A stretch of DNA of 23,530 nucleotides from Candidatus Hodarchaeota archaeon. Its GTDB lineage: Archaea > Asgardarchaeota > Heimdallarchaeia > Hodarchaeales > Hodarchaeaceae. The position numbers and the translations under genes are program-made. Positions 6,609 to 20,030 of this stretch are shown here, piece by piece. A model generated the notes under the pieces. That model saw only the letters and a list, made by a program, of their open reading frames with translations. It was not told where the DNA came from and did no database searches. Location: positions 1 to 23,530 of the forward strand of contig JAEOTM010000046.1 of NCBI GenBank assembly GCA_016839815.1, in the 5' to 3' direction. The number at the start of each line of letters is the position of its first letter. Position 1 is the first letter of the stretch.

Positions 6609-7250
6609 ATGAAAAAAAGTGATTTAAAGAGAGAAATACCCAATTTTCGTAATTTGAGGGATATTACACAATATTCTGGCTCTAATATCAAATCTAATAT
6701 GCTTTTTCGATCTTCAGATTTATCAGCGTATGAAAAAGATCCCCTATTAACGAAATGGTTTGATCAACAAGGAATTAAAACTATTATTGATCTTCGAAAT
6801 CGTAAAGATATCATGAGACGTACATATTCTCCTAATATATTGAGACACATTAATTATATCAACCTTATCCTTGTCTCCGAAGAAACTGAGAATAAAATTA
6901 TAGGGAGAGACAACACCGAGTATTATACGTGGGTTCTTACACATGAAAGGGAGAATCTTAAAGAATTATTTACTATCCTAGCAAATAAGGAGAATTATCC
7001 TCTAATTATTCATTGTCATGTAGGAATGGATAGAACTGGTATTGTTCTAGCGTTAATTCATCTTCTATTGGACTCCTCTCGTGAAAATATTATTAAAGAC
7101 TACTTAGCATCAGGACCAAACATGAAACAATATTTAATAAACTTAATTCTGCAAATCACGGATAATAACGGTGGTATTACTCATTATCTCAAGGAATTAG
7201 ACATTTCAGAGAAAATCCAGCATCAAATCATCAGGAATTTAACAAAATGA
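6609..7250 (+). CDS. Tyrosine/dual-specificity phosphatase family protein (Y_phosphatase3-like)
   Basis: NFRNL, LFRSS, IKTIIDLR, catalytic HCHVGMDRTG (CX5R), DYLAS. Confidence 0.92.
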   Translation: MKKSDLKREIPNFRNLRDITQYSGSNIKSNMLFRSSDLSAYEKDPLLTKWFDQQGIKTIIDLRNRKDIMRRTYSPNILRHINYINLILVSEETENKIIGRDNTEYYTWVLTHERENLKELFTILANKENYPLIIHCHVGMDRTGIVLALIHLLLDSSRENIIKDYLASGPNMKQYLINLILQITDNNGGITHYLKELDISEKIQHQIIRNLTK

Positions 7251-8626
7251 ATAACAAAGATCTTTACCATAGAACTCCTCTAGTCTACGAGGATGAAACG
7301 ATCGATAATTTTATCCCTAAAGATGTAGAGTGTGAATACCTCCAAGTACCAAAAATAGAATACTTAACTGAGGATGAGATTGAATCAAGCCTTCTACAAG
7401 CATTAGAAAACCCTCACAATTCCCCAAATTTGGAAGAATTAATTAGAATTCACTATAAAGGGAATTTTGTTACACTTTTAATAGACGATAACACAAGACC
7501 TAATATCCATACACGAATCCTCCTACCACTGGTTGAGGCTCAACTAATTAATTTAGGTGTTAAGAGGTCAGATATTCGAATCATAATAGCCACAGGCACT
7601 CATACTCCACCAACCAGTTCTCAAGTTAAAACACACATTCTTGATGAACTATATTCTGAATGGAAAGAAAGATTATGGCTTCATGACTGTGATGCTGATA
7701 ACGATCATATAGACTTAGGATTATCAAGAGCACAAACCCCAATAATGGTAGATAAACGAGTTTTCAATAGTGATCTGATTATTCCCTTATCCGATTCGGA
7801 ATATCATTATTTTGCAGGAGTTGCAGGATCAGTTAAGTTGATCTTACCTGGTGTGAGTAGTAGAAAGACTGTTCGAGTTAATCATTCAAAGATTTTCGAT
7901 TTAAAATCCGGGTTCAAACAAGAATGTCGAATGGGGAATATTGAAGGAAATGTATCTATCCAAGACATCAGAGAAATTGTAGCTTCAATTCAAAAGACAC
8001 ATGGAAAGCAAATTTTTGTGATTGATGCAATACTAGACAAGAGGAAATTTGTAGACATCGTTACAGGAGATCCTCTTACGATCCATGAACTAGCACGAAC
8101 TTCTCTTTCCAAGATTCGAGATGTAAAATTACGGGAACCAGGAGATCTTGTCATAATCGGAAAACCCTCGGTTAATTACTATCAGGCTGGGAAGGGACTT
8201 AATGCAGCTAGCCATGCTGTAAAAGTGGGAGGATCCATTCTATTACTTGCAGGTTGTCCTGAAGGAATTGGCCCAAAAGAATACTTAGAAACCATGCATA
8301 TAGTAAAGGGAAAGTCTTTCATTGAGGCAATGCAGTGGGTGATCGAAAACAAATGCTCCTCAACTACCTTTGAAATTGGTATACAAAATGCAGTTGATCT
8401 TTTTCGGATTTTAGAGCACACACAAGGGAATCTATTTCTCTATTCAAAAAATTTAGACCCAAAATTGATGAAAGAGGTCTTCAGGGTCAATGTGCTACCA
8501 ATCTCATCTTCTCCTGAAGAAAGTCTCAAAAATTTTGTTTCAGATTATGTGGAGAAGAATCCCCAATCCCGGATTGTGGTTTTTGAAGATTATAACTTAT
8601 TAGCCAAAGTTGAAGATCAATCATAG
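7247..8626 (+). CDS. LarA-superfamily nickel-pincer-nucleotide-dependent racemase/epimerase
   Basis: DDNTRP, ATGTH, EYHYFAGVAGSVKLILPG, NH and YQAGK correspond to LarA catalytic and cofactor-binding motifs. ATGA overlap with the phosphatase gene. Confidence 0.9.
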   Translation: MNNKDLYHRTPLVYEDETIDNFIPKDVECEYLQVPKIEYLTEDEIESSLLQALENPHNSPNLEELIRIHYKGNFVTLLIDDNTRPNIHTRILLPLVEAQLINLGVKRSDIRIIIATGTHTPPTSSQVKTHILDELYSEWKERLWLHDCDADNDHIDLGLSRAQTPIMVDKRVFNSDLIIPLSDSEYHYFAGVAGSVKLILPGVSSRKTVRVNHSKIFDLKSGFKQECRMGNIEGNVSIQDIREIVASIQKTHGKQIFVIDAILDKRKFVDIVTGDPLTIHELARTSLSKIRDVKLREPGDLVIIGKPSVNYYQAGKGLNAASHAVKVGGSILLLAGCPEGIGPKEYLETMHIVKGKSFIEAMQWVIENKCSSTTFEIGIQNAVDLFRILEHTQGNLFLYSKNLDPKLMKEVFRVNVLPISSSPEESLKNFVSDYVEKNPQSRIVVFEDYNLLAKVEDQS

Positions 8627-8667
8627 TGATCAATATTTTAAGATCTACGCAGGATACTTGATTAGGT

Positions 8668-9723
8668 ATGGCTATTCAGTTATTCGATGTTTTAATAGCT
8701 CTTTTGATTGGTTTAACGACAGGTTTAGTGCTTCAAAGGGGAAGAGTTTGTGCTAATACCGCATTTCGAAATTTGTTGTTAATTAGAAACTCAGAAATCG
8801 CCTCGATTCTCCTAATTACTGTCCTGGTAGAAATAGTTGGGTATCAATTCCTTGAAATTCTACAAGGAACGAATTTTGTTTCAAATCCTATACCTTTCTC
8901 TATCATACTAGTTCCTATAGGTGCCTTTATTTTCGGAACAGGAACGGTTCTTGCTGGTGGATGCGCAGGTGGTACATGTTATCGTATTGGTGAAGGTTCA
9001 GTTAAATCTTTCATAGCTTTTATTGGATTTGGTAGTGGAGTAGGGATTTTAGTGATTGCCCCTTTCAAAGACATCTTGGAAAACCTACGAAATGCCACAG
9101 ATTGGTCCATTAATGGTCAAATTCCTTCACTGGAACTATTATTTCCTAGATGGGTGTGGACTCTGTTAGCTCTTGTGATCTTAGCGATTTTTATTATGTA
9201 TCAAATTCCTAAGACAAGTAAACTAACACATCTTCGTCCTGTATGGACACCAATTATTTCAGGGATTCTTTTGGGGTTCCTTGGAGTTAGTGCGCGAATA
9301 GCTTCAACATCTACAGGACGAGCGTTTGGATTTTCAACTACTGATGGTATAGGTGAGTTATTTCAAACATTAGCTGGGATCTTAAATCTCATCGATTCTC
9401 AAACAGTTGGTTGGGCGGGATATTTTATAATTGGACTCATAGGTGGTTCATTCATATCATCTATTGAGCTAAAGGAATTCAAGTTGAAAGTACCTAATAC
9501 AACGGATACTATAAAATTCTTCAGTGGTGGATTTATACTCGGATTTGGGGCAATAATAGCTCTTGGATGCAATTTTGGTCATATTTTGGGGGGTATTCCA
9601 GAATTAGGAATATCATCATTCGTGGCCGCACTTTTTATGATCTTGGGCAACTGGTGTGCCTCACTTATGATCTATACTCGTTTAAATCACCCATATCCCA
9701 CTTCAACACCAATTGATATCTAA
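8668..9723 (+). CDS. YeeE/YedE family sulfur-compound (thiosulfate-type) transporter
   Basis: Multi-TM protein with the three conserved Cys motifs QRGRVC, LAGGCAGG and LGCNFGH. Confidence 0.9.
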   Translation: MAIQLFDVLIALLIGLTTGLVLQRGRVCANTAFRNLLLIRNSEIASILLITVLVEIVGYQFLEILQGTNFVSNPIPFSIILVPIGAFIFGTGTVLAGGCAGGTCYRIGEGSVKSFIAFIGFGSGVGILVIAPFKDILENLRNATDWSINGQIPSLELLFPRWVWTLLALVILAIFIMYQIPKTSKLTHLRPVWTPIISGILLGFLGVSARIASTSTGRAFGFSTTDGIGELFQTLAGILNLIDSQTVGWAGYFIIGLIGGSFISSIELKEFKLKVPNTTDTIKFFSGGFILGFGAIIALGCNFGHILGGIPELGISSFVAALFMILGNWCASLMIYTRLNHPYPTSTPIDI

Positions 9724-9724
9724 A

Positions 9725-10480
9725 ATGACTGACAAGGAAAAAGAGATGCCTCACAAACTTACCGAGAAAGATATGGTTGTTATTATTCCAGCTCATAATG
9801 AGGAAGAGACTCTACCATCCTTAATACGTCTTATCCAGTCCAAGATATCTTCAACAATTCTAGTTGTTAATAATGCCTCAAGCGATCAGACTGGCGCTAT
9901 TGCACATAATGCAGGGGCCATAGTTGTACATGAAAAACGTTTAGGCTATGGCAATGCTTGTTTGGCCGGAATTAACTATTTAACATCTCTTTCTGACAAA
10001 CCAAAGGTTATCTGCTTTTTTGATGGAGATGGTCAGAGTTTAGTAGATGACATTCCAAAAGTAGGAAAATCTGTCTTTCAGGGCAAAGCTGATTATTGCC
10101 AAGGGTCTAGAATGATCCTAAAATCGTCGAAAAATAGTTTAGAAACGTTAGCTCGCGTAGCTAATCACTTCTTTTCACTACTACTGTCTTTTACTTATCA
10201 CCAACGTATCACAGATTTAGGTCCACTCCGTATTATCACTTGGAAAGCATTACAAAAACTAGAAATGACTACCCCAAGTTACGGATGGACCATGGAAATG
10301 TCTGCAAAAATAATGAAATCAGGTTTGAGACATACTGAGGTCTCAGTAAATTACATTAGGCGCAAAAAGGGAAAAAGTAAAATTTCTGGAAATATCACTA
10401 GTGCTTTCAGAGCTGCCTTAGTTATGTCTTCTACTTATCTCAGGATTCTATTTTTCTGGAGGCCTACTCATAGTGTCTGA
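9725..10480 (+). CDS. GT2 glycosyltransferase, polyprenol-phosphate sugar synthase (DPM1)-like
   Basis: IIPAHNEE, VVNNASSD, GYGNAC, FDGDG, GSR, TDLGPLR, RRKKGKSK. The start could be 9713, 9725 or 9746. Confidence 0.9.
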   Translation: MTDKEKEMPHKLTEKDMVVIIPAHNEEETLPSLIRLIQSKISSTILVVNNASSDQTGAIAHNAGAIVVHEKRLGYGNACLAGINYLTSLSDKPKVICFFDGDGQSLVDDIPKVGKSVFQGKADYCQGSRMILKSSKNSLETLARVANHFFSLLLSFTYHQRITDLGPLRIITWKALQKLEMTTPSYGWTMEMSAKIMKSGLRHTEVSVNYIRRKKGKSKISGNITSAFRAALVMSSTYLRILFFWRPTHSV

Positions 10481-11234
10481 CAATTCCACTGGGATAATTG
10501 TATTTACAAAAGTTCCTCAATCTGGATTGGTAAAAACTCGAATCCAACAGCCACTTCTTTCTCCTGAGTTCCCCTCCATATTACAAACTGCCATGTTATT
10601 AGATACGATAAAAGGATTAAAATTCATTCCAGAAAAAATCTCTCCTGTAGTCACATATCACCCAGAACAGGCAAAATCAACATTTGAAAAACTGATCATT
10701 AAACCCTTAGTCAAAGATGATCCAAAATTTGTATCCACACTTAAATTTGTCCCACAGAGCGGAGAAACTTTTACTGATCGTTTTCATAATTCTTTTCAGC
10801 ATGTTTTTCACAATCTCAAATTATCTTCTGCTTTAATTATTGGTTCAGATACACCACATCTTCAACCAACTCTTTTACAAACAGCGATCAAAATATTACA
10901 ATCTGATCCACTCAGATCAGTTCTTGGGCCCTCTCAAAATCAAGGATTCTACTTACTAGGACATAATGTTCCAAGTATTGATGGAATTGGGCAAATCTTT
11001 GAAGAGAACTCCCCTTATGGAGAATTGGGTAATGCCATGGATCTTCTTTTAAATTATACAAATGTACATATATTACCCGAAGTAAGTGATATAGATGAAT
11101 TTGAAGATTTAAAATCCGTGGCATCTATAATAAGACTTTTATCGCTGAATTATGAAAGGGGAAAGGAAGTTTATTTACCTGAACATACATTCAATTTGAT
11201 AAACACATTAGACACCACAATCTGGGATTCCTAG
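10473..11234 (+). CDS. DUF2064 / TIGR04282-like GT-A fold transferase (CofC-related fold)
   Basis: FTKVPQSGLVKTR, PQSGETF, IIGSDTP, VLGPSQNQGFYLLG and DIDEFEDL. GTG start overlaps the GT2 stop. Confidence 0.88.
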   Translation: MSDNSTGIIVFTKVPQSGLVKTRIQQPLLSPEFPSILQTAMLLDTIKGLKFIPEKISPVVTYHPEQAKSTFEKLIIKPLVKDDPKFVSTLKFVPQSGETFTDRFHNSFQHVFHNLKLSSALIIGSDTPHLQPTLLQTAIKILQSDPLRSVLGPSQNQGFYLLGHNVPSIDGIGQIFEENSPYGELGNAMDLLLNYTNVHILPEVSDIDEFEDLKSVASIIRLLSLNYERGKEVYLPEHTFNLINTLDTTIWDS

Positions 11235-11276: not shown

Positions 11277-11528
11277 TCATAGAAATAGATCAAAAAGAAT
11301 CAGGAATATCGAGAAGGCGAAAAGTAATGCTCCTATAATTAGAATATCCTCAAATGTTCTTATTGAGTATGTATTATGCTTATTTAACGGTTTAACCTTC
11401 CTGATTAAACCTTCTGATTCTGGAATCTTTTGTTTCATTCTTAATTTTCTAATATCTGTTTTTTCGATACCAACTGCTTTTTGTACTGGTTCTTTTTCAG
11501 TGGAATAGTTTTCAATCATTTTTTTCAC
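11277..11528 (-). CDS. Small protein with a single C-terminal TM helix
   Basis: Basic soluble N-terminus and hydrophobic tail ILIIGALLFAFSIFLILFDLFL. A TATA-like box and a palindrome lie upstream. Confidence 0.5.
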   Translation of the reverse strand: MKKMIENYSTEKEPVQKAVGIEKTDIRKLRMKQKIPESEGLIRKVKPLNKHNTYSIRTFEDILIIGALLFAFSIFLILFDLFL

Positions 11529-11574
11529 TCAAAATATCTTATCAAAGACTATATTAGTCTTTCAACTATTAGTT

Positions 11575-11599
11575 TTTAAACTATTCGATTTCCGAATAT
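11575..11599. promoter_or_regulatory. TATA-like box plus imperfect palindrome (copy 2 of the PadR-linked motif)
   Basis: TTTAAACTATTCGATTTCCGAATA closely matches TTTAAACTGTTCGAATTTCGAATA at 13335-13358. Confidence 0.55.
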
Positions 11600-11755
11600 G
11601 TGTTTTGAGAAATCGATTTAAAAATGTGAATAACTGATAAAGAAGGTGAGAAACTGATTGAAACTCATCAAGAAAATCTCATCTTAATCTAGATACTGGA
11701 ATTCGGCTAGAACCAAATCCCGATCCATCTCAAATCAATTAAATCTTCATTTGAA

Positions 11756-12913
11756 CTATTTAGTAAAATTTTTTACGGTTTGATTCCATGAAAAATAGTA
11801 TAGCAGATAAAAACTATTTAATAGCAACAAAAGACTAAGATAAACAGCAATCCAAGCTGGTAAGCCAAAAACAGTCCAAAACATTAGTTCTCCCCACAAT
11901 CCATATACTCCAATCAAAAGGATCAAACCCCCGAGTAAATTTCCGCTTCTAAGTTTCTTCATAATTTCAATCTCATAAGAACTAATAAATCTTAATAATA
12001 CAAAGTATGGTACATCAGAGGGTACTTGGATTATATTCCATCTATAGAGAAAGAAAAAAGAAATTAAACTTAGAATCAGTAACAATATACTCATAGTAGC
12101 GAATTCATCTCGTGAAACATCTAAAGGGGAGTAAATGAAAAATAACCACACAGCTATAAGTGATAATACTAACCCCAGCGAGAAATACTTTCTATATTGT
12201 ACTAACTGGATTTCATAGCGATAATTCTTTCGTACTTTCTTATGATAAAATCGCTTAATCGAAAATCCGATTACTAATCCAAGTATTAGTGCTGGAATAA
12301 GCATACCTGAAGCAACACCATGCAATCTGTTGAATAAATTAGGGATTTTGATCAAATCTGGTTCTGCAAAAGTAGAGAACTGAATATTGATTAAAGCAAT
12401 TCCTAGAATAAGACTGACTAAGTACGATAAACAAAAAATCGCGATGTATGAATATTCAATTAATTCGAGTGGAAAGAATTCCTCACTTTTTCTTATAGAA
12501 CCACTAAGGTTTCGACCACAATTATCACAGAACCTAGCATCACTATCATTTGGCCAATTACAGAATGCACATACATTTGATTTGTCTATTTCAGATCTTG
12601 AAATGACTTCAGAATGAACTACTTGGTCAAAACTCACGTCCATTGCCTGTAATATTTCACTAGGAGAGCCTATATCTTTTAGCAAACCTATAGCATCATC
12701 AAAAGTTATTTTTGATTTATCTACAAAATTCTCAACAAATTCTTCAATGTACTCAACAATCCCTGTAATGACCTTTGTTTGATCATCTGAATTAATATCC
12801 AGTGAAGACATTTTCTTCTGAAAATTAAACAAGAAAGATTCAATTAATTGCCATGCGTCAGTAGTAAAGTAATTTGATAAAGATTGAAAAGAATCCTGAT
12901 TAAGAATACTCAT
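11756..12913 (-). CDS. HAAS-like domain + zinc ribbon + multi-TM membrane protein (PadR partner)
   Basis: Helical N-terminus ending LLKDIGSPSEIL (HAAS-type GxP motif), then CAFC...FCDNCG and about 6 TM helices. Starts 11 bp after the padR stop. Confidence 0.7.
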   Translation of the reverse strand: MSILNQDSFQSLSNYFTTDAWQLIESFLFNFQKKMSSLDINSDDQTKVITGIVEYIEEFVENFVDKSKITFDDAIGLLKDIGSPSEILQAMDVSFDQVVHSEVISRSEIDKSNVCAFCNWPNDSDARFCDNCGRNLSGSIRKSEEFFPLELIEYSYIAIFCLSYLVSLILGIALINIQFSTFAEPDLIKIPNLFNRLHGVASGMLIPALILGLVIGFSIKRFYHKKVRKNYRYEIQLVQYRKYFSLGLVLSLIAVWLFFIYSPLDVSRDEFATMSILLLILSLISFFFLYRWNIIQVPSDVPYFVLLRFISSYEIEIMKKLRSGNLLGGLILLIGVYGLWGELMFWTVFGLPAWIAVYLSLLLLLNSFYLLYYFSWNQTVKNFTK

Positions 12914-12924
12914 TTTAATTCCTC

Positions 12925-13302
12925 TTATTCATCCTGTAAAAGGAGATTGATAATATGTTGAAGTTCCAACCAATCTCTTCTTTTTTTGTTTAATTGTTGC
13001 ATTCCCTTTTCAGTCAGAGAATAAACCGATCTCTGACGTGTTACACCTACAGATCGAGAGGGGGTGTCTTCTATTCTTTTTACTAAATACCCCTTTTCTT
13101 CTAATTTGTCCATTTGGGGATATATCGTTCCAGCTCTTAATGAAATCATTCCATTTGTCTTTTCCTTAATTATTCTGATGATTTCATATGCACTGTAGAA
13201 TTTTTTTGGCCCTATAACTCTTAATGTTGATAAAATTACTAAAAGTGAGAGATCCTTCCCTATATAGGAATTATAATCTTGATGACTATCGCTCTGACTC
13301 AT
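12925..13302 (-). CDS. PadR family transcriptional regulator
   Basis: AYEII, GTIYPQMDKLEEKGYL and RSVYSLTEKG winged-helix motifs. Confidence 0.92.
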   Translation of the reverse strand: MSQSDSHQDYNSYIGKDLSLLVILSTLRVIGPKKFYSAYEIIRIIKEKTNGMISLRAGTIYPQMDKLEEKGYLVKRIEDTPSRSVGVTRQRSVYSLTEKGMQQLNKKRRDWLELQHIINLLLQDE

Positions 13303-13425: not shown

Positions 13426-14247
13426 CTAGGTAACGTCAACTAGTGATTCTATCCGTTCAATTGACTCATCAATATTCTTTATATCCTCAATATTAAGCGA
13501 GATAGCATTTTCGGGACATACAAGTACACATCGCCCACACCCACGACATGTATCATTTATAACAGATTTTCCATCAACAATTTTGATCGCTTTTACAAAA
13601 CACACATCAACACAAGTGCCACAACCTATGCAACTCTCATCCACAGTTATCGATACTCCAGGCATTTTATTTATCTTAGCTGCTATCTTTTTAGATACAT
13701 GAGGGAGAATACGCCATAAACAACAGCAATCACAACAATTACATATAGTAAGTAATTTTTCTCCAGGACCTACCTTTAGCCAGACAGTATCAAGTTTATT
13801 CCGTCCGATAAGATGCACCAATCCAGCCTCCCGGCACTTAGCTACATGTTCAAGTGCTTCTTCCCTAGTAACGTTCTTGCCTAGATTTTTGTCAATCTTC
13901 ATGGCCGCTTCTCCCAAGAATAAGCATCCTAACTCAATAGGATAATGATCACACTTTGAAGCTGATCGACAAATACACCAGTCCATTATAAAATGGTAAT
14001 TTGCTTCATTTACAAAATGTTCCACAATTTTTGAAGGAACAACTGTTTCTCCATGCCGTTCTATTGGTTGATTGAGTTGTATTTGAGTTGTACTTTCATC
14101 TTTTGGTAAATATAGGATATCATCCCCATCAAACATCATATAGTCCATAGCTCTCCCTAAGAGGGGAATACGAGTGAACTTAGAAAAGAAAATTCTAAGT
14201 GGAAACCCTTTTTTCAATAACCAAACAAATAACCGTGATCTGGGCAT
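13426..14247 (-). CDS. 4Fe-4S ferredoxin-domain protein
   Basis: CICR...C...C and ICNCCDCCC, plus two C-terminal clusters CIGCGTCVDVC and CRGCGRCVLVCP. Confidence 0.9.
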   Translation of the reverse strand: MPRSRLFVWLLKKGFPLRIFFSKFTRIPLLGRAMDYMMFDGDDILYLPKDESTTQIQLNQPIERHGETVVPSKIVEHFVNEANYHFIMDWCICRSASKCDHYPIELGCLFLGEAAMKIDKNLGKNVTREEALEHVAKCREAGLVHLIGRNKLDTVWLKVGPGEKLLTICNCCDCCCLWRILPHVSKKIAAKINKMPGVSITVDESCIGCGTCVDVCFVKAIKIVDGKSVINDTCRGCGRCVLVCPENAISLNIEDIKNIDESIERIESLVDVT

Positions 14248-14510
14248 CTTCTAAAACCATCTTCCTTGAAAAAATACGAATTGACGGAATCGGTGATGGT
14301 ATATTTATTTCCGCTGTTAATTTCAATATATTACTAAAATCGCAGATTTTCTGAACTAACCGTAGTTATTTTATCTTTTCGTCTTCCGTATGGAATACTT
14401 CTTATTTTTCCAAAATTATGTATATTATAAATAGATCACTTACAGAAAGATTCTGGAGTGGAATGTTTTCTTTCAAATGGAAGCACAGATATTTAGTAAA
14501 GGTGTTTGGT

Positions 14511-15947
14511 ATGCAAATTCCACTTGGGGTTATAATTTGGATGATGAGTGGTTTTTTTTTCTTTCTTAGCTCAAGTTATTATATTCTAGAGATGATTCCG
14601 TCCTATATTCGACACCGTAAGAATTATCTCAATCCAATTTCACCTTCTAATGAAGAGATATTCACTTTACTGAGCCAATCTGGACAACTTTTCCCCTTGA
14701 TAAAATTTCAGATAACTACACGGGGAGACGAAAGAGATGTAGTAAAACGAGGAATTAATAGTATCTATCAGATAACTAAAGATAATCCATTATTTACCTC
14801 AAACATAGAGCTTTTAATTGTAACTGACAATCCTGAAGAAGTTGGTATTTTCACTGACTATTTTAAATCATTAAATATAATATTTCCGTCAGAAGTTTTG
14901 GTAGTTCCCCCAGACTATAATACCCCTAATATGACGTTATACAAAGCACGAAGTCTACAGTATGCGGTAGAATACAGAAAATCGATAAACCCTATAAGAT
15001 CAAATGAGAAGATAAGATCATTTATCTTTTATTTCGATGCTGAATCAACAATTGAAGAGGAAGATTTTCGAAGAATCATCCATACGACTATTAGTTTTCC
15101 AGATAAAAAGATCTTTGAAGGTCCAATTGTGTATCCACACAAATACTTCGAATCTAACGTTTTTAGTCGTCAGATGGAAGCATCTCGTCCATTTAACTGT
15201 CATCACTGTGCTCAGGTGATGAAAAATCCCCCACCTACCCATTTGCACGGTTCAAATCTTCTGGTTGAAGAGGAAATTGTTAATGAGGTTGGGTGGGATT
15301 TTGGACGAGTTGATAATAAACCTATTTTAGCGGAAGACCTAATTTTCGGGCTTAATGCTTATATGAAGTATGGTGGAGGTGTTTTCGGCTGGCATGGAGG
15401 ACGGATATCGGAACAACCACCCTTCACAATTCGATCATCATTTAACGCTAGAATTCGATGGGTGACTGGCGCATGGCAAGCGTTAAAGTTGTTAAATGAT
15501 GTTCCTGATTTCCAAAAACTTTCTCGGCGTCAACAACTCTCCATTAAGCTACGAATCAGACTTCGCATTATGACTCATTCCTTGAGCTTCTTTGCTGCAA
15601 GTTTTGTAATACTAAGTTTAGCCATTTTTCTATTTCCTTCAGTATTCATGGCTTTTCATTTCAATCCGCAGCTCCTTTCCCCCAATTTCAGAACTGCACA
15701 ATTTGTCTTAACTAGACTTATTTTTCTACCTGGGACAATTTTTTGGTTATTTGGAGTATTCATAGGTTCTTTAAAGAACTTAGAATTAATTGAGGGAATT
15801 ACACGAAGAGAGAAGATTGTAGAAATAATAAAACTTTTAATTGTAACACCTCTAGCTGGTCCTATTGAATCATTTAGCGCATTGTACGCTTCAATTAGAT
15901 GGATAATTGGTAAACCGTACAATTCCTGGGCGGTTACATCAAAATAG
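14511..15947 (+). CDS. Membrane GT2 glycosyltransferase, Egghead/BRE-3-like
   Basis: ITTRG, VVPPDY.T...YKARSLQY, FDAES, HGSNL, AEDL and EQPPFT...RIRW, with N- and C-terminal TM helices. ATG 14511 follows AAGGTG, so it is preferred over 14418. Confidence 0.8.
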   Translation: MQIPLGVIIWMMSGFFFFLSSSYYILEMIPSYIRHRKNYLNPISPSNEEIFTLLSQSGQLFPLIKFQITTRGDERDVVKRGINSIYQITKDNPLFTSNIELLIVTDNPEEVGIFTDYFKSLNIIFPSEVLVVPPDYNTPNMTLYKARSLQYAVEYRKSINPIRSNEKIRSFIFYFDAESTIEEEDFRRIIHTTISFPDKKIFEGPIVYPHKYFESNVFSRQMEASRPFNCHHCAQVMKNPPPTHLHGSNLLVEEEIVNEVGWDFGRVDNKPILAEDLIFGLNAYMKYGGGVFGWHGGRISEQPPFTIRSSFNARIRWVTGAWQALKLLNDVPDFQKLSRRQQLSIKLRIRLRIMTHSLSFFAASFVILSLAIFLFPSVFMAFHFNPQLLSPNFRTAQFVLTRLIFLPGTIFWLFGVFIGSLKNLELIEGITRREKIVEIIKLLIVTPLAGPIESFSALYASIRWIIGKPYNSWAVTSK

Positions 15948-15957
15948 GCGAGGATGC

Positions 15958-17325
15958 TTGTTAACTCCTAGAAATCGGAAAAAATCAGATATAGATTTTT
16001 GGACGAGTATGAAAAATTGGTTTGAGTCCCAAGGAACAGTTTTATTATTAGTCGGAGGAATATTTCTGTTTCTTTCAATGGCGTTTCTCATTGTAAAAAC
16101 AGGATTGAATCGATCGCTCATGAGCTTTGAATTATTATTCTTTTTACCTTTTCTTGTATATCTGATCTTACTTTTGTATCTTAATACTTTCAGGATAAAC
16201 TCAATAAGGTACTATAGAGGAGTAGTAATTTCCTTCACAGTTTTAATCCAGCTTCTCATCTTAACTACTGAAATTTCCTTATCAGATGATATATACCGCT
16301 TCCTTCTTGAAGGAAAAATGATTCTAAATGGATTTAATCCTTACATAACATCCATAGATGAAGTTCCTAATGATTTATTACCAAATTTTCTTCCATTAGT
16401 CAACAATAGCCATATTACGTCACCTTATCCTCCCTTAGCATTATTTTTTTTTGCAGTGCTTGTCTGGATTCGGGAAGATCCACTTATCTTTCGAATTACC
16501 TTTTCTGCATCCTTTATTCTTTCGATCATCCTATTGGATAAATTATTAACAGATATAAATAGATGGAAATCAATTATCTTTGCATGGAATCCGTTATTTC
16601 ACCTTGAAATAGCAAATGGATCACATTACGAACCTTTAATTATTTTCTTCATCGTCATTTTTCTCCTTGCTTTAAAGGAGGAAAATAGGGTAGTAGCAAG
16701 TATTGCTCTTTTAGTAACCATACTTTTGAAATACTATACAGTCTTCATTATTCCAATCTTTTGGAAGCATTTGGGGAAGGATGGAAAAAGGATGTTTGGA
16801 TTTGGAATGTTAATATATATAGTATCAGTCTTTCTGTATCCTTCGCAGCTATCAGGGGTGTTTGTCTACGCGGATGAGTGGTATTTTAATGCAAGCATCA
16901 TGTGGATACTTTTTAAGACCACTTCCTCCTTTCTGCTTTCAAAAATAATCTCAGCATTAATTTTTCTTTCATTTCTATTAGTCATAAGTTATGGTGCAAA
17001 TAAATCCGAAAACATTCCATATTATTCAGTGGGCTTGATTATTGGTCTTTTCTTACTTTTTCAACCAACCTTTCATCCTTGGTATCTGTTTTGGTTATTC
17101 CCATTTATTATAATGGACACTAACAGAACACCTTGGAGCTGGATCATTCTTTCTGGGCTAGTAATCTTCTCATACAATGTTTTTATCCAGTTCGATTCAA
17201 GCAGTATATGGTTTGAGTCAGGTTTAATACGTTTAATCCAGTACATACCGTTTTATGTCCTCTTTCTTTTTGAAAACCGAAAAAACCTCACAAACATGAA
17301 AAAGAACATTTTTTCTTTAAAATAG
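15958..17325 (+). CDS. GT-C fold (GT87/DUF2029-like) polyprenol-phosphate-sugar-dependent glycosyltransferase
   Basis: SDDIYRF...G.NPY, SPYPPLA, AWNPL, GSHYE, LLKYY and HPWY motifs, more than 10 TM helices. Probable TTG start 10 bp after the upstream stop. Confidence 0.82.
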   Translation: MLTPRNRKKSDIDFWTSMKNWFESQGTVLLLVGGIFLFLSMAFLIVKTGLNRSLMSFELLFFLPFLVYLILLLYLNTFRINSIRYYRGVVISFTVLIQLLILTTEISLSDDIYRFLLEGKMILNGFNPYITSIDEVPNDLLPNFLPLVNNSHITSPYPPLALFFFAVLVWIREDPLIFRITFSASFILSIILLDKLLTDINRWKSIIFAWNPLFHLEIANGSHYEPLIIFFIVIFLLALKEENRVVASIALLVTILLKYYTVFIIPIFWKHLGKDGKRMFGFGMLIYIVSVFLYPSQLSGVFVYADEWYFNASIMWILFKTTSSFLLSKIISALIFLSFLLVISYGANKSENIPYYSVGLIIGLFLLFQPTFHPWYLFWLFPFIIMDTNRTPWSWIILSGLVIFSYNVFIQFDSSSIWFESGLIRLIQYIPFYVLFLFENRKNLTNMKKNIFSLK

Positions 17326-17355: not shown

Positions 17356-17868
17356 TTATATGAGAAACTTAACATATTTTTCGGGAATCTTTTCCTGTAA
17401 CCAGTAGTCTGCACCATACCATCTACCTGCGCTTATTAGAGCACATGTAAGAAACCCTACAAACAAAATTGGTTGTGTCCAAATCCACTCCGCGCCTAAT
17501 GAACCCAAACCAAGTATTACAGTAGAACCTGCTCCAATGAGTGAACCAAGTCTAGTTAAAATTCCGAAAGTAAGTGATAGAGCAATTAGGAGCTCAAAAA
17601 TCATCCAACCAAGTCCGAAAAAGGTAGAGGTTGTAGTATTGGCTATGGCAACTTCTTTAATGATTATATCAAAAGGCGTTTCTATATGTCTAGTAGGTTC
17701 AAGGAAATATTCGATTGTATCTTTAAAACCTGTTGCAGTAAATACTCCTTTTCTAAGATTCTCCATCCATGTTGTCAAAAAAGCTAATCCCAAAGCAACT
17801 CGTAGTATAACAACATATCCCCCTGATATTTTCTGATCATGCATCTTTTGGATTGTTTCACGTGACAT
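17356..17868 (-). CDS. DoxX / DoxD-like membrane protein
   Basis: LRVALG, ELLIALSLTFGILTRL and GRWYGAD motifs, four TM helices. Confidence 0.8.
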   Translation of the reverse strand: MSRETIQKMHDQKISGGYVVILRVALGLAFLTTWMENLRKGVFTATGFKDTIEYFLEPTRHIETPFDIIIKEVAIANTTTSTFFGLGWMIFELLIALSLTFGILTRLGSLIGAGSTVILGLGSLGAEWIWTQPILFVGFLTCALISAGRWYGADYWLQEKIPEKYVKFLI

Positions 17869-18159: not shown

Positions 18160-18951
18160 ATGAATTTCAAGTATGATTTTACTGTTAAAGACGTTTCTGA
18201 TGCATATGATGGTGTTGTGGGTGTATTATGGGAAGTGTTGATGGGAGAACACATCCATGTAGGAGGAGAAAAGGAAACGGAAAGGTTAGCAAAGAAGTTA
18301 CAGGTAAATGACAAGTATGTACTGGACATCTGTTCTGCACTAGGTGGTCCAGCTAGATACCTAGCAAAAAACTTCAATGCTTCTGTACTTGGAGTAGATA
18401 TTACTAAAACTATGTTAGATAAGGCTAATACACGTACTATTAAGGAGGGGTTGCAGGATAAAATAGAATATCGGAGAGGTAACGCCTTGGATTTACCAGT
18501 GAGTAGTAATAGTATGGATATCGTTTGGGGACAAGATGCCTGGTGTTACATAACTGATAAATCACGATTAATTTACGAAGCTGTTAGAGTCTGCAAACAA
18601 AAAGGGAAGATTGGCTTTACAGATTGGATTTTAGGTTCTACTCCCCTAGAAAAGGAAGAAGCTGACACTCTGTTTGAATTCATGATTTTTCCAAATTTAG
18701 AAACTCTTGAAGGATATCAAATACTCTTAGAGGAGAATAATTGTAAAGTAATTGAGGTGGAAGATCTTCAAGATGATTTTGCGATTCATCTGAAGCATTA
18801 TCTTGAAAAATTGGTAGGGATGAAAGAAGTAATTACCCAAGAATTCAGCGCAGAATTGTACGAAATCGCTGAAGCTGGAGTGAAAGCGTGGAAAAAGGCT
18901 GCGGAAGAGGGGAAAGTTTCACGTGGATTGTGGATTGCTGAAAAAGTATAA
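18160..18951 (+). CDS. Class I SAM-dependent methyltransferase (resembles the sarcosine/dimethylglycine and phosphoethanolamine N-methyltransferase group)
   Basis: EHIHVGG, VLDICSALGGPARYLA, GVDIT, GNALDLP and DIVWGQDAWCY. Confidence 0.88.
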   Translation: MNFKYDFTVKDVSDAYDGVVGVLWEVLMGEHIHVGGEKETERLAKKLQVNDKYVLDICSALGGPARYLAKNFNASVLGVDITKTMLDKANTRTIKEGLQDKIEYRRGNALDLPVSSNSMDIVWGQDAWCYITDKSRLIYEAVRVCKQKGKIGFTDWILGSTPLEKEEADTLFEFMIFPNLETLEGYQILLEENNCKVIEVEDLQDDFAIHLKHYLEKLVGMKEVITQEFSAELYEIAEAGVKAWKKAAEEGKVSRGLWIAEKV

Positions 18952-18965
18952 AGGATACAATAAAA

Positions 18966-20030
18966 GTGTTCGATGAACCAAATTCTGCCTTCCTTCACGG
19001 AGGAATGTCATCAGAAGCTCTAATTCAAAAGAAATATTTTAACGAGGGTTTGATATATACCTTACAAATTGAATTGACACTTAAATGTGCACAAGGATGT
19101 TCTTACTGCTACGCAGAATCAACACCATCAAGTCCTGAACTTTTAGACTCCAAAGAAATAAAGAGAATCATTGATGAGGCTGCTGAGATTAAAGTTAGGT
19201 GTATTGACTGGTTGGGAGGAGATCCTCTTGTCCGAAGTGACTGGTACGACTTATTAATGTACGCTCAACAAAAAGGGTTGATAAATAACATCTGGACCTC
19301 TGGTATTCCGTTAAAAAACAAAACAATCGCAAAAAAAGCCGTTGAGGTAACTCAAAACGGTGGATTTATCTCTGTACATCTTGATTCACTGAATCCTGAC
19401 GTGTACAAACAAATTCATTCTTTCAAAATTGAAGAAAATATCGATGCCATACTTCAAGGGGTTGAAAATATAATCTCTTTCGGTAAGGATCCAAATGAAA
19501 TTTGGAACTGTATTACCTTGACAAAACCAGTAGCAGTCAATGACGTCTATGATACCATGGTATGGTTTTGGAATAAGAAGAAGATCAGAACTGTTCTTAC
19601 ACTTTATAATCCAGTTGCAAGTACTGATTCTCGAGAAGAATTAGTACCTTCAAATGCGTTAATACAGAAAGCTTACCAGGGACGAGATGAGATTATGTAT
19701 GGGGACGATTTATCTTTTTCAACAATGGATGTTAACAAATTCTATTGTGGAAGTATGATCTGTATTACGAATGAAGGGGATTACACTCCCTGTTCAGTTA
19801 TTCGTACAAAGGAATTTGGTAATCACCAAACTATAAGTCTGGTTGAACTTTTAGAGGAAAATCCAGGGGATATTTTGATGAAAAAACTTCGTAATCCAGA
19901 TGATCTACCTGAACCATGTTCAGATTGTGATCAGAATGAAGTTTGTTTCGGTTGTCGATCATCCGCATATTATTATTCTGGAGATATGTTTGGATGTGAC
20001 CCCAAATGTTCTAGATGTAATCCAAGCTGA
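18966..20030 (+). CDS. Radical SAM protein with SPASM domain
   Basis: CAQGCSYC and GGDPL, then C-terminal CGSMIC...PCS...CSDC...CFGCR...DPKC. Confidence 0.93.
   Translation: MFDEPNSAFLHGGMSSEALIQKKYFNEGLIYTLQIELTLKCAQGCSYCYAESTPSSPELLDSKEIKRIIDEAAEIKVRCIDWLGGDPLVRSDWYDLLMYAQQKGLINNIWTSGIPLKNKTIAKKAVEVTQNGGFISVHLDSLNPDVYKQIHSFKIEENIDAILQGVENIISFGKDPNEIWNCITLTKPVAVNDVYDTMVWFWNKKKIRTVLTLYNPVASTDSREELVPSNALIQKAYQGRDEIMYGDDLSFSTMDVNKFYCGSMICITNEGDYTPCSVIRTKEFGNHQTISLVELLEENPGDILMKKLRNPDDLPEPCSDCDQNEVCFGCRSSAYYYSGDMFGCDPKCSRCNPS

Follow-up and report, generated by a model that had tools for sequence, protein, structure and literature searches.

A five-gene array in a Hodarchaeales genome probably joins a recent phosphatase-LarA pair to a conserved YeeE-glycosyltransferase module

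Gene content of the locus

No known prokaryotes are more closely related to eukaryotes than the Asgard archaea. The DNA analyzed here (the window) is the entire contig C94 (JAEOTM010000046.1; 23.5 kb) and belongs to a metagenome-assembled genome of the Hodarchaeales (Heimdallarchaeia, Asgard), 4.24 Mb in size and 89.5% complete. Five plus-strand open reading frames (ORFs) lie between positions 6609 and 11234, and encode a cysteine phosphatase, a LarA homolog, a YeeE channel, a family 2 glycosyltransferase (GT2) and a DUF2064 protein. An earlier note on this DNA took them as one operon for an undescribed pathway; here it is proposed, as the probable reading, that the five genes represent two evolutionary units, a recent phosphatase-LarA pair and the front half of an older YeeE-GT2-DUF2064 module, and that the module makes a lipid-linked sugar glycosylation system.

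6609..7250, plus strand: Cys-phosphatase, Y_phosphatase3/COG2365-like (PF13350, 1.3e-33)
7247..8626, plus strand: LarA homolog (Lar_N PF09861, 2.6e-38; LarA_C PF21113, 1.2e-06)
8627..8667, no strand: LarA-YeeE spacer of 41 bp (sequence reading)
8668..9723, plus strand: YeeE/TsuA-type sulfur-species channel (Sulf_transp PF04143, 3.4e-58, full length)
9725..10480 (alternative TTG start at 9713), plus strand: DPMS/AglJ/ArnC-like GT2 (Glycos_transf_2, 8.2e-16)
10473..11234, plus strand: DUF2064, CofC/MobA-like nucleotidyltransferase-fold protein (PF09837, 5.5e-16)

ORF analysis, domain searches and direct reading of the sequence found the five co-oriented ORFs where the earlier note had placed them, with the overlaps and the intact LarA and YeeE motifs it described, and its gene identities and general statements on the families held in the Pfam and NCBIfam searches. 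The spacing is as tight as was claimed, with gaps of 41 bp or less, the LarA-YeeE gap being 41 bp. By direct reading, the phosphatase and LarA genes share an ATGA overlap (7247-7250), the GT2 and DUF2064 genes overlap by 8 nt (GTG at 10473, TGA at 10478-10480), and a GGAGG stands 11 nt upstream of the DUF2064 GTG start. The ATG at 9725, 1 nt past the YeeE stop, is the more likely start of the GT2 and is favored over the TTG at 9713; whichever is used, the GT2 is tightly coupled to YeeE.

The LarA-YeeE spacer contains a TATA-like AATATTTTAAG about 25-30 nt ahead of the YeeE ATG, which could be a candidate internal promoter, and the same spacer in loci L006/L011 holds a similar AATATTTTTAAG, a likeness that may be due to chance in an AT-rich genome. 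A 9-mer, GCAGGATAC, upstream of YeeE is common to the window (8650-8658) and to genome G002 (L010:691-699) and is not present in L006/L011; it may also be a chance match. The promoter scan of the window was made with a sigma-70 model, which is not applicable to an archaeon, and its lone terminator-like match sits within the YeeE coding region and scores below the shuffle mean.

A YeeE-glycosyltransferase module conserved in Heimdallarchaeia

Judging from gene neighborhoods, YeeE, GT2 and DUF2064 make up the 5' half of a module conserved in Heimdallarchaeia, which extends 6 kb past the five genes and has three further members in the window:

14418..15947, plus strand: membrane GT2, Glyco_trans_2_3, GT21/Egghead-like (PF13632, 4e-14)
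15907..17325, plus strand: GT-C fold glycosyltransferase, MptA/MptB/GT87-like (weak NCBIfam MptA/MptB matches; PF26314/PF09594 on orthologs)
17356..17868, minus strand: DoxX-family small membrane protein (PF07681)

The synteny survey was a tblastn search of all window proteins against 17 related loci. The membrane GT2, whose ortholog in locus L084 also carries Glyco_transf_21, adjoins DUF2064 in 12 other loci, and a homolog of the GT-C gene shares the locus in 13 related loci, making it a conserved partner. The order YeeE-GT2-DUF2064-membrane GT2-GT-C is contiguous in genomes G002, G010, G016, G001, G013, G014 and G012, and G020 has the same order on a short contig; DoxX is nearby in most of the contiguous loci, usually after GT-C. 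The same families, in shuffled order and orientation, were found in more distant Heimdallarchaeia (G059, G061, the Kariarchaeaceae contig L082 and contig L084), with DoxX directly upstream of YeeE in G059, L082 and L084. In the last two, a gene for an Rv1681(MoeX)-like radical SAM protein of 304 aa lies beside the DoxX-YeeE genes (L082:6447-7945, L084:6416-7856). Usually, a radical SAM gene of some kind also accompanies the module.

In a phyletic survey of 83 Heimdallarchaeia genomes, the YeeE orthogroup (threshold of at least 50% identity) was present in 12, and all 12 have a DUF2064 ortholog, which shares the locus with YeeE in 11 genomes and is adjacent to it in nine. DUF2064 without an intact YeeE occurs only in G006 (with a YeeE remnant), G008 (with a truncated GT2) and G064 (at a contig end). 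The locus of G008, on a single contig of 3.16 Mb (CP070760.1; L016:9630-12393), retains DUF2064 and the membrane GT2 next to a GT2 of about 110-131 aa, and YeeE, GT-C and DoxX were not found nearby; the module of this genome looks decayed.

YeeE might instead be an ordinary thiosulfate importer that stands by chance next to unrelated glycosylation genes. It does have the full length and the intact Cys triad of a TsuA-type channel, and the many TusA-family matches in the genome could act in trans. However, this explanation is very improbable given the constant company of DUF2064, the TusA partners present at the two other YedE-type loci of the genome and missing from the module YeeE locus, and the survival of the YeeE association through gene-order rearrangement in at least three lineages. 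Because of that survival, the comparison argues for a functional coupling of YeeE to the glycosyltransferase genes, beyond inherited synteny. Of the pathway proposed earlier for all five genes, the YeeE-GT2-DUF2064 part thus stands as a conserved association, by synteny and by co-occurrence, whereas the linkage with the phosphatase and LarA is limited to one clade.

History of the phosphatase-LarA linkage

The phosphatase and LarA genes adjoin YeeE-GT2-DUF2064 only in the window, in G005 and G006, and in the JGI contigs L006/L007. The full order from phosphatase to DUF2064 is kept in G005 and in the two JGI contigs, which come from essentially the same organism; G006 keeps the order with YeeE decayed to an N-terminal remnant of 59-75 aa (L012:10673-10891) between an intact LarA and GT2. 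Beyond these close relatives the five-gene order was not found in the loci compared. Ten other LarA orthologs, with 54-68% identity, are never beside the phosphatase, YeeE or the transferases; they belong to G008, G004, G021, G001, G003, G012, a Promethearchaeota-labelled contig and three further contigs.

As the earlier note had suggested, LarA was placed in a tree and its neighborhoods were compared. In the maximum-likelihood tree, the linked copies form one four-row clade (100/99), nested in a 14-row orthogroup (100/100) in which the other ten rows are all unlinked. In a tree of concatenated GT2, DUF2064 and membrane GT2, G002 nests within the phosphatase-LarA clade (98.6/96), yet this genome (93% complete) keeps the module and has no phosphatase and no LarA ortholog anywhere, which indicates a secondary loss of the pair. 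In one alignment, the stretch before YeeE in G002 resembled a leftover LarA 3' end, but neither blastn nor tblastx detected it above chance level, so the loss rests on the tree and not on a remnant. From trees and synteny, the pair is thus seen as a single, recent gain upstream of YeeE in a small Hodarchaeales clade, with a later loss in G002. By the same comparisons, phosphatase and LarA are a translationally coupled pair that is dispensable for the neighboring genes.

The recurring neighbors of the unlinked LarA orthologs are amidohydrolases, M20/M28 peptidases and nitroreductases. LarA orthologs near amidohydrolase or M20/M28 peptidase genes are found at L006:5413-6825, L008:6288-7344, L071:3282-4928, L069:4721-5902 and L070:701-2071, and the amidohydrolase gene of L006 and L011 is missing from the window. 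These neighbors hint at a role of LarA with amino-acid-derived 2-hydroxy acids. Because the orthologs elsewhere stand alone, often near such genes, the ancestral role of LarA was probably catabolic.

This history bears on the pathway of the earlier note, in which LarA would epimerize a hydroxy or sugar acid, DUF2064 and GT2 would activate or glycosylate it, the phosphatase would dephosphorylate the product and YeeE would supply sulfur, giving a thio- or seleno-sugar or a modified head group. Such an integrated pathway would suit five co-oriented, tightly spaced and overlapping genes that follow one another in G005, G006 and two JGI contigs as they do in the window, with proteins 57-75% identical; DUF2064 also resembles CofC, the activator of phospho-hydroxy acids, and the genome encodes the NPN machinery. 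However, the linkage has a single origin in one small clade, with ten LarA orthologs unlinked; G002 dropped the phosphatase-LarA pair and retains the module, while G006 dropped YeeE and retains the pair; the module does without LarA in at least eight further genomes; no kinase was found that would form the phospho-hydroxy acid; and the TATA-like element precedes YeeE. By the refuting conditions that the earlier note had set, the LarA half of the pathway is largely refuted, and a single pathway of all five genes is considered unlikely. The literature searches found no described pathway with this combination of genes, in agreement with the earlier note.

Phosphatase and LarA homolog

The phosphatase has the PTP fold and the CX5R catalytic loop of the Y_phosphatase3 superfamily, with PDB matches to 8dhi and PtpB (1ywf) and a loop, HCHVGMDRTG, that aligns with HCTAGKDRTG of 8dhi. 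Its orthologs (65%) are limited to G005 and G006 and, by tblastn, the two JGI contigs L006/L007. The next relatives (about 44%) are non-orthologous C-terminal domains of proteins of 469-487 aa (L036:6415-7878, L038:4905-6314); the G059 version of this relative has an N-terminal Polbeta-type nucleotidyltransferase domain.

The LarA homolog has both domains of the superfamily and matches the malate racemase Mar2 (6d6z) at 3e-40 with the catalytic residues aligned. The DxTR, GTH, EYH, K, NH and YQAxKG elements all align, the window protein having DDNTRP, TGTH, SEYHYFAGVAGSVK, VNH and YYQAGKG at the same positions as Mar2. With residue roles assigned from published LarA structures, these include the two catalytic His, the NPN-tethering Lys, the nickel-ligand His, and the Arg and Y-Q-x-x-K of the carboxylate-binding site. 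The earlier note had proposed to look for larB, larC and larE elsewhere in the genome, and all are present above the NCBIfam cut-offs: LarC (123.9/98 bits) and LarB (234.7 bits) are encoded side by side on contig C117 (L029:3-1899), with genes overlapping by 8 nt, far from all four LarA homologs of the genome (four Lar_N matches), and two copies of larE, both at 265 bits, lie on contigs C66 and C43. Since the catalytic residues are aligned and the larB, larC and larE products exceed the cut-offs, the window LarA is likely functional, most likely as an active NPN-dependent 2-hydroxy-acid racemase or epimerase.

The best NCBIfam match of the protein is to the malate racemase LarAH6 (214 bits vs. 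a cut-off of 500), and scores against the characterized subfamilies (lactate racemase, LarAH5/H6, LarAH10) range from 176 to 214 bits, below cut-offs of 460-540. Because no cut-off of a curated isofunctional family is reached, no subfamily or substrate is assigned to it. Having LarA homologs and the NPN genes is nothing unusual in Asgard archaea, where LarA homologs have been reported in 87.5% of species (PMC11770544). The window LarA differs from other members of the superfamily in its overlap pairing with a Cys-phosphatase, which has no described counterpart. A sulfolactate route, in which the phosphatase would be an analog of phosphosulfolactate phosphatase, LarA would racemize sulfolactate and YeeE would provide sulfite, was rejected, as the genome has no ComA (PF02679).

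YeeE channel

The YeeE protein aligns over its full length with the solved YeeE/TsuA of S. thermophila (8e-44), and its three Cys (in GRVC, GGCAGG and LGCNFGH) align with the three relay cysteines of that protein, so that it has both the full-length Sulf_transp domain and the conserved cysteines of this family. From the NCBIfam and structure-match comparison it is of the TsuA type and not of the YedE type. Unlike the YeeE(TsuA)/YeeD(TsuB) system of thiosulfate uptake, however, it scores below the NCBIfam TsuA cut-offs (200 bits vs. 400 and 139 vs. 645), is embedded among glycosyltransferase genes and has no adjacent YeeD or TusA. No YeeD/TusA partner was found on contig C94; the 11 TusA-family matches of the genome are all on other contigs, and at both other YedE-type loci a TusA gene lies immediately upstream. 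One of these (L065:1501-2055; G000:C25:9555-10109) has one in-frame TGA in its Sulf_transp match, which could be a selenocysteine codon, a frameshift or the mark of a pseudogene. The YeeE orthogroup of the module is a distinct Asgard clade with 46-78% identity, which falls to 36% for bacterial YeeE.

GT2 and DUF2064 proteins

The GT2 is a DPMS/ArnC/GtrB-like GT-A enzyme with a DxD signature, its FDGDG motif being invariant. The NCBIfam matches include AglJ (99 bits, the best), PpgS (66 bits) and a Dol-P hexose transferase. A profile of the orthogroup matches P. furiosus DPMS (5mlz) at 1.6e-11 over positions 5-215 of 237, as well as ArnC (5-213) and GtrB, covering the catalytic domain and interface helices. 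Only this profile found PDB matches, as single-sequence searches with the GT2 and with the membrane GT2 returned nothing.

The DUF2064 protein is CofC-like over its whole length (CofC, 30 bits), and its best NCBIfam match is TIGR04282 (93 bits vs. a cut-off of 134). Its only solved relative is 3cgx, matched at 2e-21. The ortholog alignment shows invariant CofC-like motifs, K..KTRL and GSDTPH, and the N-terminal FTKxPxxGxVKTRL is invariant in 14 orthologs, which supports the GTG start; the later ATG start, called on a JGI contig, would delete this motif. The overlap with the GT2 gene is seen in most Hodarchaeales. Bacterial DUF2064 relatives in Nitrospinota, Planctomycetota and Bacteroidota (25-30% identity) had none of the window partners by tblastn, and the literature searches returned no paper on the function of DUF2064 or TIGR04282 and no characterized member of the family.

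Other genes near the module

Three further gene blocks lie within or downstream of the module:

11277..13302, minus strand: small 83-aa ORF, 385-aa zinc-ribbon protein and PadR regulator (Pfam)
13426..14247, minus strand: 4Fe-4S ferredoxin-domain protein, at this position only in the close clade
18160..20030, plus strand: class I SAM methyltransferase and radical SAM/SPASM enzyme, not ArsM/ArsS (domain searches, synteny)

The first block splits the module and, among the compared loci, occurs at this position only in this genome, with homologs of its single genes found elsewhere (L012, L030); it is probably an insertion. The methyltransferase and SPASM radical SAM pair is often linked to the module, downstream of it, in Hodarchaeales. 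The SPASM enzyme (18966-20030) was considered as an ortholog of the Rv1681-like radical SAM proteins of L082/L084 and rejected, the identity being about 20% over the core only.

These genes and the NCBIfam names raise the question of an arsenosugar or selenium-type cassette, with YeeE as a metalloid or selenium transporter. As in the ArsS/TIGR04282/TIGR04283 cassettes, a small GT2 and a DUF2064 protein are paired, with a radical SAM enzyme near; the DUF2064 protein matches TIGR04282 best, the selenium-linked YedE is a relative of YeeE, and the downstream methyltransferase has weak ArsM similarity. However, both window proteins score below the family cut-offs (TIGR04283 at 33 bits vs. 182, besides the TIGR04282 score given above), and ArsS was not found in the genome, at its completeness of 89.5%, where the best TIGR04167 match reaches 35.5 bits vs. 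300 and is the SPASM enzyme itself. The radical SAM proteins beside YeeE in L082/L084 are Rv1681-like and not ArsS, and YeeE is of the TsuA type. The link to arsenosugar/selenodomain clusters drawn by the earlier note does not apply here, and a cassette of this type has almost no likelihood.

Comparison with known glycosylation systems

Three-component systems of lipid-linked glycosylation include Ppm1 with MptA/MptB of mycobacterial lipomannan, GtrA/B/C, ArnC/ArnT with ArnE/F, PpgS/Rv3779 and the archaeal AglJ/DPMS, and have in common with the module a DPMS/ArnC/GtrB-like GT2 coupled to a GT-C enzyme of the MptA/B/GT87 type. Since a polyprenyl-phosphate GT2 and a GT-C are conserved together, the module reproduces the logic of Ppm1-MptA/MptB, GtrABC, ArnC/ArnT and MtxS/MtxT. 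It differs from them by the addition of DUF2064, overlapping the GT2, and of a second membrane GT2, YeeE, DoxX and a radical SAM enzyme. No flippase of the GtrA or ArnE/F type was recognized in it; among its conserved partners, the only small or polytopic membrane proteins are DoxX and YeeE.

In the MTX capping of M. tuberculosis lipoarabinomannan, MtxS (Rv0539, GT2) makes decaprenyl-P-MTX, and MtxT (Rv0541c) is a GT-C enzyme (PMC8780516, PMC12088412). The likeness, by described roles only, lies in a polyprenyl-phosphate-sugar synthase that works with a GT-C, in that system for the delivery of an unusual sugar that contains sulfur. Rv0540, between the MtxS and MtxT genes, is presumably a DUF2064 protein, and no paper found in the literature searches names it. 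In contrast to the MTX system, no MTA or nucleoside phosphorylase was found among the window genes or the scanned neighbors in related loci, and the MTX cluster, as it has been described, lacks YeeE, DoxX and the membrane GT2.

Proposed function of the module

The family resemblances make polyprenyl-phosphate-sugar glycosylation of a surface glycolipid or glycan the most likely function of the module. In the mechanism proposed here, DUF2064, with its CofC-like fold, would activate a phospho-sugar or similar compound to a nucleoside-diphosphate (NDP) derivative, the donor for the GT2, and the DPMS/AglJ-like GT2 would load this derivative onto dolichyl or polyprenyl phosphate at the cytoplasmic face. 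GT-C enzymes take polyprenyl-phosphate sugars as donors. Once the loaded lipid has been flipped, the GT-C would pass the sugar on to an acceptor at the outer face; this acceptor is probably a glycolipid whose synthesis the membrane GT2 begins. DoxX and YeeE, the latter having an intact Cys relay but no YeeD, may form a pair for sulfur handling or redox chemistry that accompanies the glycosyltransferases, and their contribution could be the supply of sulfur for a modified sugar, or something else. A sulfur-bearing sugar as the product is an attractive, unsupported possibility.

Several points weigh against the reading of two units with a glycosylating module. The genomes compared are related and non-independent, and the module was found in only two GTDB families and metagenome contigs. 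For DUF2064 as a nucleotidyltransferase, and likewise for the identity of the sugar, the acceptor and any role of sulfur, the basis is family resemblance. In bacteria, uptake through YeeE reportedly requires YeeD (PMC11073785), and for this reason the orphan YeeE may have a different working mode, or it may borrow one of the 11 TusA-family proteins. The five genes may be co-transcribed in this organism, because the gaps are of 41 bp or less and the phosphatase-LarA-(YeeE)-GT2 order is present in three species representatives. The phosphatase and LarA could also have been recruited into the pathway in the clade of the window, G005 and G006.

Such a recruitment might have gone further, with LarA and the phosphatase tailoring the lipid-linked sugar precursor, for example by epimerizing a sugar-acid or 2-hydroxy-acid moiety after dephosphorylation, and with YeeE, DoxX and the radical SAM enzyme delivering sulfur to a thio- or other sulfur-bearing sugar on an Asgard surface glycolipid. 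This extension is speculative and rather doubtful; if true, it would be the first link of nickel-pincer racemases, a YeeE sulfur channel and glycoconjugate synthesis.

Meaning for Asgard envelope biology

For LarA and the phosphatase, adjacency alone is no ground for annotating them into a glycosylation pathway, and the 'arsenosugar' family names of NCBIfam are misleading for the proteins studied here. The interest of the locus lies mainly in the conserved module and less in the juxtaposition with LarA. To our knowledge, the surface glycolipids and glycans of Asgard archaea are almost unstudied. The module is a Heimdallarchaeia-specific set that joins a sugar loader of the dolichol-phosphate type and a GT-C with an Egghead/GT21-like lipid glycosyltransferase and an orphan YeeE. 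It supplies a functional context for the uncharacterized DUF2064 family, and it represents a concrete, testable handle on an envelope component of Asgard archaea.

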